Sequence record: PX104380.1
Direction: 5' to 3' (one strand)
Source: a phage
DNA: 64,000 nt
In this document: piece by piece, positions 11,715 through 58,449 of the stretch
Numbering within the stretch: the stretch's first letter is position 1
Layout: each line of letters opens with the position of its first letter
The notes under the pieces: model-generated
Told to the model about the DNA's origin: nothing
The model's input: the letters and a program-made list of their open reading frames with translations, nothing else
Databases searched by the model: none
Position numbers and translations under genes: made by a program

Positions 11715-12893
11715 TTAAAAATATTTTTTAAAACTCATCATAACTTTATCATCAACATCATTATCAATCTGTGCAACAAGATAAGATGACAGTTCTACTT
11801 CTTGCGGCGCGGATTGAACATTATCAGAATTAAGGTATTCACGAATCCAAGGATATGGATGTTTAACCGGAGCATCGGTAATTGGACATGGAAGACCGCA
11901 CTGTTTCATACGAGATACAGTTAAGTAATCAATAAAGCTCCACATGCTATTTGTATTTAATCCAGGAACATCGCCATCTTTAAATAAATGAACTGCCCAA
12001 TCTTTTTCTTGGCGGTTAACTTCCATGAAAATATCAACTGCTTCTTGTTCACACTCTTGAGCAATTTTAACCCATTCATCACCATCAGTGCCAAGCTGAA
12101 GTTGACGAATAATATATTGAGTGCCTTTAAGGTGAAGTTGTTCATCACGTGCAATGAACTTCATAATCTTGGCATTACCTTCCATGATTTCCATGTTCTT
12201 ATGGAAGTTAAAGGTACATGCGAAAGATACATAAAAACGAATAGCTTCAAGGGCATTAATAACATGCAGACACAGATAAAGCGACTTCATTAGCTCACGC
12301 TTCCAATATGTCTCATGCTCAATAGCATCTTCAATAACGTCTTCGTCTGCATTAATTTCTTTTTGGTATTCGATATCAGCTTTAGCGTTTTCCCAATAAC
12401 GAGTTTTAATCAGAACGTCATCATAATAACGTCCAATGGATTCAGCGCGTTTCATAATAGCTTCATCTAATACAATCTCATCAAATACCTTTGACGGATC
12501 AGTATAAAGATTTCGCATAATATGAGTGTATGAACGACTGTGAATAGTTTCACTAAAAGTCCATGTAGCAACCCATGTATCAAGACTTGGGTCTGAAATT
12601 AATGACATAAGTACAGCAGATGGCGCACGACCCTGAATGCTATCCAAAAGTGATTGATACTTCAGGTTGTTAGTAAAAATATTTTGCTGGTACTGAGGAA
12701 GCTTATTAAACTGTGCAGCATCCATCATTAAGTTTACTTCTTCAGGACGCCAAAAAAATGATAAAGATTTCTCAATAAGTTCTTCAAATACTCTATGTCG
12801 TTGAATATCATATCGAGCTAAACCCAATCCAGAACCAAAAAACATCGGCTCAGTCAAAATATTAACAGGGGATGTATTAAAAACTGTACTCAT
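11715..12893 (-). CDS. nrdB: ribonucleotide reductase small subunit, 392 aa, uninterrupted
   Basis: Full-length contiguous ORF with RNR R2-like features; position between denA and mobE. Confidence 0.9.
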   Translation of the reverse strand: MSTVFNTSPVNILTEPMFFGSGLGLARYDIQRHRVFEELIEKSLSFFWRPEEVNLMMDAAQFNKLPQYQQNIFTNNLKYQSLLDSIQGRAPSAVLMSLISDPSLDTWVATWTFSETIHSRSYTHIMRNLYTDPSKVFDEIVLDEAIMKRAESIGRYYDDVLIKTRYWENAKADIEYQKEINADEDVIEDAIEHETYWKRELMKSLYLCLHVINALEAIRFYVSFACTFNFHKNMEIMEGNAKIMKFIARDEQLHLKGTQYIIRQLQLGTDGDEWVKIAQECEQEAVDIFMEVNRQEKDWAVHLFKDGDVPGLNTNSMWSFIDYLTVSRMKQCGLPCPITDAPVKHPYPWIREYLNSDNVQSAPQEVELSSYLVAQIDNDVDDKVMMSFKKYF

Positions 12894-13531
12894 TTAGAAT
12901 CCTTAAATTTACATTTATCATAATGCCATCTTAAAGCATTGCCTTTATTAACTTTCTTGCCACAATGCGGACAAGGCGGATACTCTGTACCTTGCTTAGT
13001 TCTCAAAGAAATCAAATCACGGGTTTCTTTAGTATGAGGAACATCTCTTGTCGGAGAAATTGTACCATACATCGGATTAAGCACGCCGACTTTAGCAGCA
13101 GCTATATTCTTTTTAGCTTCTTCGGTTTTAGGTTTTCTCATGCGAGCTAAATGCTCTTTGGTAAATTTCCTTCCTTTAAGAGCTCTACTTATCTTTTCTC
13201 TGGTTTCCATAGAAACTTCACGTCCTATAGCAGCTTCAGATAAACGTCGTCTACCTAATTCGTACAGTTGAGAAGAAATTTTATATGAGCGATTTTTACC
13301 AGTCAAGCACATTAAACCAAAAGCTTTCTTTAATCCTGGGGTGTCATATATTTTACATAAAAGCCAATGAGCTATAAAATGCTCTCTACCTGTTAATTCA
13401 ACTAAATTTTCTTTATCATCAGAACCTCCCATGCATTTAGGGACTATATGATGTGTCTCTTTATATTCGGATAAAGGTTCCCGAGCCTGAGCTCGGGAAA
13501 TTAGGTCATTATAGATTTTTTGATAATTCAT
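12890..13531 (-). CDS. mobE: HNH homing-endonuclease-like protein, 213 aa, between nrdA and nrdB
   Basis: HNH motif ETHHIVPKCMGGSDDKENLVELTGREHFIAHWLL; position matches recalled T4 mobE. Confidence 0.7.
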   Translation of the reverse strand: MNYQKIYNDLISRAQAREPLSEYKETHHIVPKCMGGSDDKENLVELTGREHFIAHWLLCKIYDTPGLKKAFGLMCLTGKNRSYKISSQLYELGRRRLSEAAIGREVSMETREKISRALKGRKFTKEHLARMRKPKTEEAKKNIAAAKVGVLNPMYGTISPTRDVPHTKETRDLISLRTKQGTEYPPCPHCGKKVNKGNALRWHYDKCKFKDSK

Positions 13532-56526: not shown

Positions 56527-56551
56527 GAAAAAAGGACTCCCGAAGGAGTCC
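56527..56551 (-). terminator. rho-independent terminator downstream of soc
   Basis: Same 18-nt hairpin GGACUCCUUCGGGAGUCC as at 3808-3825, followed by UUUUUUCAUUUUA. Confidence 0.65.
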
Positions 56552-56559
56552 TTGAATTA

Positions 56560-56796
56560 TTAACCACCTATTTGTGTAGGCGTAAACATTGCAGCATTCT
56601 TAGTTTTCCAAGTTGCTGCATCAGAAACTACAGTAGAATATGCCGCCTTTTCAGAAGGAAAGGTCTGATAATGAGAATCTGCAATACGATGCTCGTTAGA
56701 ATAAATTTCAAACGGAACAGAAACTTCCATACCTTTAACTTCTTTGCCTTCACCTGCTGGATGAGTAAAGGTCTTGATGTTAACGAAACCACCCAT
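56560..56796 (-). CDS. soc: Soc small outer capsid protein, 78 aa
   Basis: ...VNIKTF...HYQTFPSEKAAYSTV... matches recalled T4 Soc; TATAAATA late promoter upstream. Confidence 0.85.
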   Translation of the reverse strand: MGGFVNIKTFTHPAGEGKEVKGMEVSVPFEIYSNEHRIADSHYQTFPSEKAAYSTVVSDAATWKTKNAAMFTPTQIGG

Positions 56797-56827
56797 AATA
56801 AACTCCTTTATTGTTTAATTACAAGTG

Positions 56828-56835
56828 TATTTATA
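56828..56835 (-). promoter_or_regulatory. late promoter (TATAAATA) for soc
   Basis: Minus-sense TATAAATA ~30 nt upstream of soc ATG, overlapping the 3' end of the HNH ORF. Confidence 0.65.
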
Positions 56836-57667
56836 ATCCATTTTCAAATCTCTTTATCATGTTTATATAATTTTCGTCAGGATAACCTAGGCTAACTGCT
56901 AGTTTTCTAAAATTGACATATTTAGGTTTGTTGTTATTAATCCATAATTCTCTAAGCTCTTTTTCATAATTCCATTTAAGTTGATTTCTGCGTGCAGTTT
57001 TGCTTAAAGTTTTTCCTTTAGCTTTTAAAGCTTTTTCAGATGACTGTTTTAATTTTTGAATATTTAAAACTTCTTCTATAGATAAATTATTTTCCTTTGA
57101 ATATCTTATGCAAAAATCTTTTACTGCGGCTATTAGGCAATTTTTGTGAGTACCTAAAATTTCTGGGTTATTTTCTTCAACTAAAATTCCCCAATATCTT
57201 CGGTAGCGAGGCATATCTCTTGAAATCCAGTCATTATACCAAAAATCAAAGTTGGAATACATGAAAGATTTTCTTTTACGAAGAGTATCTTGGTTTATCC
57301 ATTGCTCACGTTTATCAGCCCATAACTTAATAGTAAAGTCTTTTTCTGAGTCAGAAAGCTTCTTAAATTGCGAGCTATTTACTGAGGTCATTCTCTGGAA
57401 TGCATTCAGCAATCCAAATCTTCCAGTTGAACATAAGAGATAGTGAACATATATGTGTTGATATATTGGGAGATATACTCTATTCCAAGGATGTATTTTA
57501 AAATCACTATACTCAGGAAATGCGCATTTAGGAAGTATATGATGGGCTTCTGTTTTAGATTTGATGTGAGTGTTTAACTTATATTTATCTATAATTTTTA
57601 AGTACTCATCTAAAAGTTCCCATTGCGGGAACTTTTCTTTAAGAGCAGATTTGAAATTAATATCCAT
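56831..57667 (-). CDS. HNH homing-endonuclease-like protein, ~278 aa, between soc and gene 56
   Basis: HNH motif EAHHILPKCAFPEYSDFKIHPWNRVYLPIYQHIYVHYLL, similar to the mobE ORF; track start 57682 is TTG, ATG at 57667. Confidence 0.6.
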   Translation of the reverse strand: MDINFKSALKEKFPQWELLDEYLKIIDKYKLNTHIKSKTEAHHILPKCAFPEYSDFKIHPWNRVYLPIYQHIYVHYLLCSTGRFGLLNAFQRMTSVNSSQFKKLSDSEKDFTIKLWADKREQWINQDTLRKRKSFMYSNFDFWYNDWISRDMPRYRRYWGILVEENNPEILGTHKNCLIAAVKDFCIRYSKENNLSIEEVLNIQKLKQSSEKALKAKGKTLSKTARRNQLKWNYEKELRELWINNNKPKYVNFRKLAVSLGYPDENYINMIKRFENGL

Positions 57668-58175
57668 TATCTTGACGTTCAAAATTATGCTTGTTCTTCA
57701 GATAATAAAGTTTAAAGATTTCTTCAGCAGTAAGGCCGAGACCTTGGAACATGTTCAGAACGAAATGAAGAATATCAATCATTTCGAATTTAATTTCCAA
57801 CTGGTCTTGTGGAGACAAATCAGTAATCAGAGTTTCACGACGTTCACCATGCTGCGACTTCCAAGGCTTCCATACAGCAGATGCATCTTTTTCACCATTG
57901 CTCATACCACCAAGAGAAGTCAGAAGTTCACGGAATTCATCATCAATGTAATCTTTCTGATTACGCAGCCAATCGACAACTTCACCTGCAGTAGCCAAAT
58001 CATCAGGATGACGGTTATATTCAGGTTTATCTTTAGCTAAACGAACCTGCAGAGATTTCTGCATATCAAGCATAACTTGCAGTGGGTCTTTTTCATCACC
58101 GAGAATATCCCAGTATTCATTTTGAGCTTTATCAGCACCAGCGATCAGATGACTACATTCGTTGAAATGTGGCAT
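57657..58175 (-). CDS. 56: dCTP pyrophosphatase (dCTPase/dUTPase) gp56, 172 aa
   Basis: 172 aa MazG-like; position upstream of soc. Confidence 0.85.
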   Translation of the reverse strand: MPHFNECSHLIAGADKAQNEYWDILGDEKDPLQVMLDMQKSLQVRLAKDKPEYNRHPDDLATAGEVVDWLRNQKDYIDDEFRELLTSLGGMSNGEKDASAVWKPWKSQHGERRETLITDLSPQDQLEIKFEMIDILHFVLNMFQGLGLTAEEIFKLYYLKNKHNFERQDNGY

Positions 58176-58248
58176 GTTATTTTTCCTTTCAATTCATGGG
58201 TTAGTAGATTAATTATACAATAAATATATAAAGCAATAAGGAGGACAT

Positions 58249-58449
58249 ATGGTACAAAAATTAATGGCACTTGTTAATGCCATAAAAGGTAATAAAAAAC
58301 GTATAGCTTTTACTATTTCTGCTATGGTAGGAATTTTACTCTGGAACTTTATTTTATCACCTGTTGCAATTGCACATGGTGTTAATATTCCAGTAGTTAC
58401 TCTTGATACATTTGTAGATTTAGCATTTGCTTTAGTTGGGTTAATTTAA
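58249..58449 (+). CDS. small membrane protein, 66 aa, plus strand
   Basis: ATG at 58249 preceded by AAGGAGG; two predicted TM segments (IAFTISAMVGILLWNFIL, LVGLI). Confidence 0.45.
   Translation: MVQKLMALVNAIKGNKKRIAFTISAMVGILLWNFILSPVAIAHGVNIPVVTLDTFVDLAFALVGLI

Follow-up and report, generated by a model that had tools for sequence, protein, structure and literature searches.

Organization of the gene 56–soc locus

We analysed a 64,000-nucleotide (nt) stretch of phage DNA (sequence record PX104380.1), here called the window, and describe an open reading frame (ORF) located between gene 56 and soc that is very probably a free-standing, intron-less and mobile HNH homing endonuclease gene of the Mob family, its nuclease function being predicted from a conserved motif and homology. 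All three genes lie on the minus strand, so that the ORF has the same orientation as its neighbours, and it is outside any intron. Gene 56, which encodes a dCTPase/dUTPase of 172 amino acids (aa), occupies positions 57657–58175 and was assigned by ORF call and homology. Its product is 95–99% identical to the annotated gp56 of phages fPS-2, SA20RB and 4E10, and 76% identical to gp56 of T4.

The endonuclease ORF follows at 56831–57667, with its ATG at 57667 and a TAA stop codon at 56831–56833. It comprises 837 nt, and the length of about 278 aa given by the initial annotation is exact. The automatic ORF call starts at a TTG at 57682 (283 aa); however, we prefer the ATG, which is used by every annotated orthologue. 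This start codon is held within an overlap with gene 56 that had been estimated at about 11 nt and that a reading of the sequence shows to be exactly 11 nt (57657–57667, ATGGATATTAA). No Shine-Dalgarno sequence is evident before the ATG. Downstream of the ORF, soc encodes a small outer capsid protein of 78 aa and of non-T4 type (56560–56796, ATG at 56796), identified by ORF call and by comparison with relatives. The transcription unit is closed by an intrinsic terminator after soc (56532–56553, minus strand), which has a 9-bp stem with five GC pairs and a T run and is annotated in fPS-2 and SA20RB. Both the intact ORF and the gene order, here and at the orthologue loci, agree with the earlier description of a mobile endonuclease gene wedged between gene 56 and soc.

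Protein family and predicted structure

The ORF product carries an HNH motif of the form EAHHILPKCAFPEY...WN...H...H. An exhaustive search of 1.84 billion representative proteins recovered 774 relatives, a family of which a word-indexed homologue search had given only three proteins. Residues 4–130 are common to most relatives and residues 200–276 to a subset. Six motif residues (H42, H43, P46, N62, H71 and H75) are invariant across 141 representatives, and the same positions are invariant or at least 90% conserved in two alignments (A1 and A2), the second of which includes the MobE protein of the window. The HNH residues, on whose presence in an alignment the initial annotation had made its assignment depend, are thus all in place.

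Two profiles of the PHROG collection match the ORF, PHROG 655 ('homing endonuclease') at 2.6e-32 and phrog_12434 ('HNH endonuclease') at 4e-10, and orthologues in about 31 phage records of GenBank and RefSeq are annotated as HNH or homing endonucleases. The Pfam HNH family PF01844 is reached by only 2 of 100 relatives, and some relatives carry NUMOD3, I-HmuI-NUMOD-like or I-TevI DNA-binding modules. BLASTP comparison with Mob proteins gives E-values of 1e-9 for MobD (over 259 aa), 3e-5 for MobE, 7e-4 for MobB and 0.03 for MobC. Searches of PDB sequences with the protein (phmmer) and with the family profile (hmmsearch) returned chance matches only. In five orthologues the reading frame is kept throughout at synonymous divergence (dS) up to 0.88, and because the ratio of nonsynonymous to synonymous divergence (dN/dS) is only 0.05–0.15, the protein is evidently under purifying selection.

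The window contains a further gene of this kind, a mobE-type ORF of 213 aa located between nrdA and nrdB (12890–13531, minus strand), whose product passes the Pfam thresholds for HNH (23.1 bits, cut-off 21.4) and NUMOD3. A resemblance between the two proteins had been remarked upon from the letters alone, and BLASTP bears it out with 37% identity over 67 aa (E = 5e-6) and a one-to-one alignment of the motif residues. In the window MobE, NUMOD3 occurs as three repeats and the C-terminus is a Cys/His element resembling a zinc finger. The motif loop of this protein follows the canonical 'HHIVPKCMGGSDD-NL' type, unlike the 'FPEY...WN' loop of the endonuclease ORF.

Structure prediction with AlphaFold gave a full-length model with a mean predicted local distance difference test score (pLDDT) of 88 and a model of the N-terminal domain with a pLDDT of 96.3. 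Conservation and the model together predict a beta-beta-alpha metal-finger core at residues 39–81 (57425–57553, minus strand), which contains all six motif residues. In the N-terminal model, strands at 39–43 and 63–67 are followed by a helix at 68–81; H42 and H43 are placed at a strand end, N62 just before the second strand, and H71 and H75 on the following helix. Structure-database searches with the models matched only helical proteins and yielded no structural neighbour, so the HNH assignment rests on motif and homology rather than on the fold. The protein is presumed to begin with an HNH nuclease domain, joined through a helical linker to a C-terminal DNA-binding module of MobD type at approximately residues 195–278 (56834–57085, minus strand).

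Distribution and lateral transfer

A total of 748 phage records match the 1.7-kb region, 29 of which cover it fully, and tblastn finds an orthologue at 80% identity or more in 31 records. Among Klebsiella phages the gene is present in only 3 of about 137 records. Carriers span the genera Tequatrovirus, Jiaodavirus, Moonvirus and Gaprivervirus. In every orthologue locus inspected (fPS-2, Pu-Krd-SF4, JIPh_Kp122, KM16, DK-13 and vB_EcoM_005) the gene directly follows gene 56, and the 11-nt overlap appears in the coding sequence tables of the first five of these. The comparison of locus occupancy across T-even phages that had been suggested at the outset shows the HNH gene to be sporadic. Elsewhere, including loci from IMG/VR, the interval between gene 56 and soc is empty or is occupied by soc.1/soc.2, a 46-aa ORF, other small ORFs, or segF, the last being present in about 50 records. 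The statement in the initial annotation that T4 has a different type of endonuclease here was correct, as segF belongs to the GIY-YIG family.

Nucleotide identities to the window copy differ markedly between the HNH gene and its surroundings. In JIPh_Kp122 (Jiaodavirus) the HNH gene is 97.3% identical, compared with 66% for gene 61, 78% for gene 56 and 71% for soc. The corresponding values are 91.8%, 67%, 79% and 78% in KM16 (Moonvirus), and 85%, 68%, 73% and 82% in DK-13 (Gaprivervirus). Because the identity of the HNH gene exceeds that of the flanking genes, we conclude that it has moved laterally between genera. Both traits by which a homing endonuclease gene is recognized, sporadic presence at one homologous site and transfer relative to the flanks, are therefore seen.

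Several individual loci depart from the common layout. In vB_EcoM_005 (IMG/VR copy L030, 2062–3736) the region is rearranged. An internally deleted T4-like copy of gene 56 comes first, followed by an ORF that fuses the first 20 HNH codons in frame to gp56 residues ~49–172, and then by a second HNH copy with a frameshifting 5-nt insertion. Both the fusion junction and the insertion are immediately 3' of the conserved hairpin described below. In DK-13 an extra 77-aa ORF (L047, 2776–3009) lies between the HNH gene and TATAAATA and overlaps the HNH stop codon by 8 nt, so that the endonuclease gene of this phage does not adjoin the soc promoter.

In fPS-2 and PYPS2T, a second Mob-like HNH gene (g030c in fPS-2; L001, 4178–4828) is directly upstream of gene 56, which is thus flanked by two endonuclease genes. 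Over the C-terminal 49 residues, g030c and the window protein are 47% identical. A counterpart of g030c is absent from the window at 58176–58445, the 270 nt between genes 56 and 61 where T4 has dam. A 66-aa plus-strand ORF (58249–58449) overlaps the stop codon at the 3' end of the primase gene by 4 nt, and the same small opposite-strand ORF is also annotated in fPS-2, SA20RB and the Pu-Krd phages.

Boundaries of the mobile block

The extent of the foreign block was mapped by aligning JIPh_Kp122 to LilPanda, an HNH-free sister phage with flanks that are about 98% identical. The 5' joint lies 36–52 nt short of the gene 56 end, the 3' joint falls within TATAAATA, and the block replaces a 45-aa ORF of LilPanda. 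KM16 has the same block edges, and the identity of the window to other HNH-positive genera stops at TATAAATA.

The 5' part of the foreign block in Kp122 corresponds to the last 36 nt of gene 56 (57657–57692, minus strand; AAGCATAATTTTGAACGTCAAGATAATGGATATTAA), which encode KHNFERQDNGY-stop. This endonuclease-linked tail differs at about 12 positions from the endonuclease-free consensus, AENFARQDRGY-stop, and its substitution creates the endonuclease ATG. Compared with the tail linked to segF in T4, the tails of fPS-2 and Kp122 are identical at 36 of 36 positions and that of the window at 35 of 36, with one synonymous base (AAG for AAA). The DNA similarity between the T4 segF locus and the HNH locus ends at the gene 56 stop codon. 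In the segF homologues L035 and L039, which are more distant, the tail differs but the overlapping start is at the same position. A 69-nt megablast query for carriers of the gene 56 tail returned mixed partial matches and no clean counts.

Because segF and HNH phages have this tail in common, it is probable, as far as can be judged from sequence, that one gene has been exchanged for the other between a shared pair of anchors. Pu-Krd-SF4, which has the HNH gene and a non-T4 soc (L052), and Pu-Krd-SF6, which has segF and a T4-type soc (L051), come from the same source and have primase genes that are 100% identical. In Pu-Krd-SF6, a T4-like tract begins near nt 120 of gene 56, runs on through soc and is much longer than the HNH block. 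The start of this tract may mark the region of the SegF break. We also observed a segF copy 90% identical to that of T4 in Klebsiella phage phi1_146055 (L050), where gene 56 mixes T4-like with non-T4-like segments and T4-like identity stops directly behind TATAAATA, which is also the case for the HNH block.

A broader possibility, which we put forward as rather unlikely, is that the gene 56 tail and the soc TATAAATA form a fixed 'docking' pair through which unrelated nuclease cassettes are swapped across genera. The tail would then perhaps be an allele resistant to cutting by both enzymes, and the invariant 5' hairpin would belong to the transferable cassette and perhaps serve as a recombination joint, a role suggested by the duplication junction of vB_EcoM_005. 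If this were true, phages with either gene would be immune to the other enzyme, so that SegF could not exclude an HNH phage and the HNH enzyme could not attack a segF phage.

Promoters, hairpin and expression

The sequence TATAAATA (56828–56835, minus strand) is an exact match to the T4-type late promoter motif. It lies 31 nt upstream of the soc ATG, at the position reported in the initial annotation, and the homologous site is annotated as a late promoter in SA20RB. The accompanying statement that the promoter is embedded in the 3' end of the coding sequence was too strong; only five of its eight bases are within the ORF, these include the TAA stop, and the motif marks the 3' edge of the mobile block. 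It is the sole minus-strand copy in the region. The window contains seven copies compared with 9.7 expected, which is no excess over chance, and the motif is meaningful because its position upstream of soc is conserved rather than because of its count. Of 40 related loci, 32 have the exact motif 26–34 nt upstream of soc and the other eight have a variant with one mismatch there, although the sequence 5' of it is unrelated between locus types. With this motif placed upstream of a late gene, we assign TATAAATA as the predicted late promoter of soc.

The transcript that carries the endonuclease ORF likely originates 5' of gene 56, at a putative MotA-type middle promoter (58212–58236, minus strand) consisting of TTGCTT, a 13-nt spacer and TATAAT. 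This site matches the consensus, and its homologue is annotated as a T4 middle promoter in SA20RB. A scan showed no promoter-like site that stands out as belonging to the ORF.

Codons 11–19 of the ORF contain a predicted hairpin, AAAAGUUCCC-GCAAU-GGGAACUUUU (57612–57636, minus strand), that resembles a weak intrinsic terminator whose U tract is short and is annotated as a terminator in fPS-2. It consists of a 10-bp stem, topped by three G-C pairs, and a loop of 5 nt, and has a predicted energy of -12.8 kcal/mol (z = -3.9). The hairpin is contained in nt 24–62 of the ORF, the only stretch without a variable site among seven orthologues that have 185 variable sites in 837 nt. The residues encoded by this stretch vary in the wider family. 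Because the DNA of the hairpin is invariant while its residues vary, the constraint appears to act on the nucleic acid itself.

An analogous hairpin is found at the same relative place in T4 segF. That gene has been described as a promoter-less cassette with an 11 bp overlap with gene 56, probably translated by inefficient re-initiation (PMC2988022). Intrinsic terminators are located within the 5' coding regions of segF and mobE (PMC2988022, PMC2790892), and the coding regions of segG, segA, segE, mobB and mobC contain promoters of downstream genes (PMC2988022). The window gene, as predicted from its sequence features, copies the published regulatory layout of segF with an unrelated catalytic domain.

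The soc leader (56793–56827, minus strand) can be folded by pairing of CACUUGUAAU...AAAC with GUUU...AUUAUGGGUG, with the AUG enclosed and the Shine-Dalgarno sequence in the loop. A late transcript starting a few nucleotides after TATAAATA would miss part of the 5' arm. This arrangement resembles the published translational control of T4 soc; however, at -10 kcal/mol (z = -1.3) the fold is not significant relative to shuffled sequences. We considered and rejected a soc translational hairpin that uses the 3' end of the endonuclease ORF, as the hairpin lies wholly downstream of TATAAATA and has this low z-score.

Relation to characterized endonucleases

The best match among the T4 proteins MobB, MobC and MobD tested is MobD, with 25% identity over 259 aa. 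MobD is a free-standing HNH protein encoded at a different locus, between nrdC.11 and mobD.1. It has the same two-part build as the window protein, and the two share an N-terminal HH...N...H...H pattern and a C-terminal ...LW..N.PK....F.....LGYP...Y....F pattern. The motif loop of the window protein ('HHILPK-FPEY...WN') is seven residues longer than the 'HHIIP-C-GG-DD--NL' loop of T4 MobB, MobC, MobD and MobE. MobD has no known target (PMC2988022, Table 1).

T4 mobE is like the window gene in being promoter-less, in overlapping its upstream gene, and in having a weak intrinsic terminator (in the window gene, a putative one) in the 5' coding region. The two differ in locus and target gene, and the MobE of the window ends in NUMOD3 repeats and a zinc-finger-like end, whereas the window endonuclease ends in a helical linker and a MobD-like module. 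MobE nicks nrdB of T2 (Wilson & Edgell 2009, PMC2790892). By analogy, it is probably the best experimental model for the action of the window enzyme, namely a strand-specific nick followed by co-conversion.

T4 SegF (gene 69; GIY-YIG) occupies the same position between gene 56 and soc. The two genes have the identical 11-nt overlap ATGGATATTAA, encode proteins that start with MDI, carry a terminator-like hairpin in the first ~25 codons, and end with a TAA inside the same TATAAATA. The catalytic domains are of different families (GIY-YIG and HNH) and there is no N-terminal similarity between the proteins, but their C-terminal modules are distantly homologous. Pairwise BLASTP between them is marginal (E = 0.07), and the C-terminal kinship is significant only by profile and via MobD. 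SegF cuts gene 56 of T2, according to the accounts of Belle et al. 2002 given in PMC2330249 and PMC2988022. Conversion tracts associated with SegF are long, as in Pu-Krd-SF6, whereas the HNH block is tightly bounded. We rejected the idea that a SegF-like C-terminal domain implies a shared target, as this module is also found in Mob proteins at other loci and the SegF copy is the most divergent.

Nucleases of different families that target the same gene from the same intergenic site have a precedent, which comes from the nrd loci rather than from the gene 56–soc interval. In T4 relatives, SegH and Hef take the places of mobC and mobE, as Sandegren, Nord & Sjoberg 2005 are summarized in PMC2988022. 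Another HNH enzyme, I-HmuI of the Bacillus phage SPO1, is a monomer with an HNH domain and an extended DNA-binding region that makes a strand-specific nick and homes with co-conversion (PMC2790892). Unlike the window gene, it is intron-encoded. Searches of the PDB and of structure databases found no detectable match between I-HmuI and the window protein in sequence or structure, although the I-HmuI NUMOD-like Pfam domain occurs in five relatives of the latter.

Proposed mechanism, target and alternatives

We propose that the endonuclease ORF would be transcribed with gene 56, without a promoter of its own, and poorly translated by re-initiation at the ATG 11 nt before the gene 56 stop codon, with the transcript further limited by the putative weak terminator hairpin in codons 11–19. 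The position of the ORF stop codon inside the soc late promoter would leave soc expression intact. During mixed infection, and on the model of MobE and MobA, the enzyme would nick or cut the endonuclease-free allele of the other phage, into which recombinational repair would then copy the endonuclease block.

Repair of a break converts everything between the break and the insertion. In the four genus backgrounds, no more than 36–52 nt have been converted on the gene 56 side and none beyond TATAAATA. Because the block is so tightly bounded, its anatomy leads us to place the break, tentatively, inside the interval from the end of gene 56 to TATAAATA. The best candidate target would be the conserved 3' end of gene 56 in naive phages, ...AENFARQDRGY-stop, and a second candidate is a site spanning the junction of the gene 56 stop codon and TATAAATA in empty alleles. 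The substituted tail, KHNFERQDNGY-stop, would guard the carrier against self-cutting. MobE and MobA each nick one target strand, which promotes co-conversion (PMC2790892).

Several observations speak against this interpretation or parts of it. The proposed target is very close to the gene, whereas free-standing T4 endonucleases often cut hundreds of base pairs from their own genes (PMC2988022). The block edges coincide with the only perfectly conserved short sequences, and their sharpness could reflect crossovers forced into such blocks (GAAGAAATCTTTAAAC... and TATAAATA) between diverged genomes, or alternatively the later erosion of longer tracts. The tail is not exclusive to endonuclease carriers, because two IMG/VR loci with no gene between gene 56 and soc (L008 and L015) have the gp56 tail QHNFERQDNGY-stop; each of these tails could be what a lost endonuclease left behind, a resistant allele, or the source from which the endonuclease-linked tail originally came. 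The U tract of the hairpin consists of four U's that also form the stem base, and a generic terminator scan made no call, missing the hairpin because the U run is only this long. Finally, scans of the ORF with Pfam and NCBIfam gave no usable match. The profile search recommended by the initial annotation therefore succeeded with PHROG and failed with these two collections, and the HNH assignment rests on the invariant motif, the homology to Mob proteins and the PHROG profiles.

The alternative that survives best, though we regard it as improbable, is that the gene is a passive passenger, Mob-like but no longer driving its own transfer, and spread by the active recombination of T-even phages or in trans by a nearby-cutting endonuclease such as one of the fPS-2 g030c type. 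Trans-homing of a defunct endonuclease by MobE has been documented (PMC2790892), but here the catalytic-motif residues are all intact and the dN/dS values show selection on the protein. Similarly, the second Mob-like gene upstream of gene 56 in fPS-2 and PYPS2T, with its related C-terminal domain, could supply such help in those phages, but the window and Kp122 carry the gene without a neighbour of this type. Block joints at the only perfectly conserved short sequences would be expected from ordinary homologous crossovers as well. The gene is, however, far better conserved across genera than its flanks.

Slightly less probable still is a domesticated or competitive function, in which the gene would be kept mainly for the damage it does to co-infecting relatives (marker or phage exclusion) or for regulation or DNA processing, and self-propagation would be secondary. 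SegF causes localized exclusion of T2 gene 56 (PMC2330249); however, exclusion is a consequence of homing and not an alternative mechanism. The strong purifying selection on the ORF is compatible with such a function, as are the placement of oriA in gene 56 in the T4 record, with a transcript running through segF, and the aid to immune evasion that PMC13096335 ascribes to SegB through promoting the amplification of anti-defence loci. A gene carried by about 4% of related phages nevertheless fits a selfish element better, and the copy in vB_EcoM_005 is rearranged and frameshifted. That the ORF is no real gene, open by chance or because of overlapping signals, or is an inactive pseudo-nuclease is scarcely credible and already contradicted, since the missing Pfam and NCBIfam matches and structural neighbours stand against an 837-nt ORF in AT-rich DNA whose frame is conserved across no fewer than five genomes (dS up to 0.88, dN/dS below 0.15), and against 774 homologues with the invariant HH-N-H-H motif.

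Implications

A literature search found no paper on this particular gene. It is ordinary and uncharacterised, belongs to a familiar class of phage mobile elements, and is an expected feature of T4-like genomes, which annotation pipelines already label as an HNH or homing endonuclease. Nucleases of different families at one T-even locus, internal promoters and terminators, and overlapping starts are likewise already documented. Modest novelty lies in the identity of the 36-nt tail to that of segF, in how very tightly the block is bounded, and in the lack of variation in the hairpin.

Among the T4 Mob enzymes, nicking has been demonstrated only for MobE, whose target is nrdB, and MobA, for which gene 39 is given as a personal communication (PMC2988022). 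The short and sharply bounded block described here narrows the candidate target to about 70 bp, which is directly testable, and the close isolates Pu-Krd-SF4 and Pu-Krd-SF6, with either occupant, are suited to crosses. The locus offers a natural comparison of an HNH and a GIY-YIG enzyme that have the same start context and gene 56 tail but very different conversion tracts. Free-standing homing endonucleases of this kind shape recombination and marker exclusion among T-even phages.

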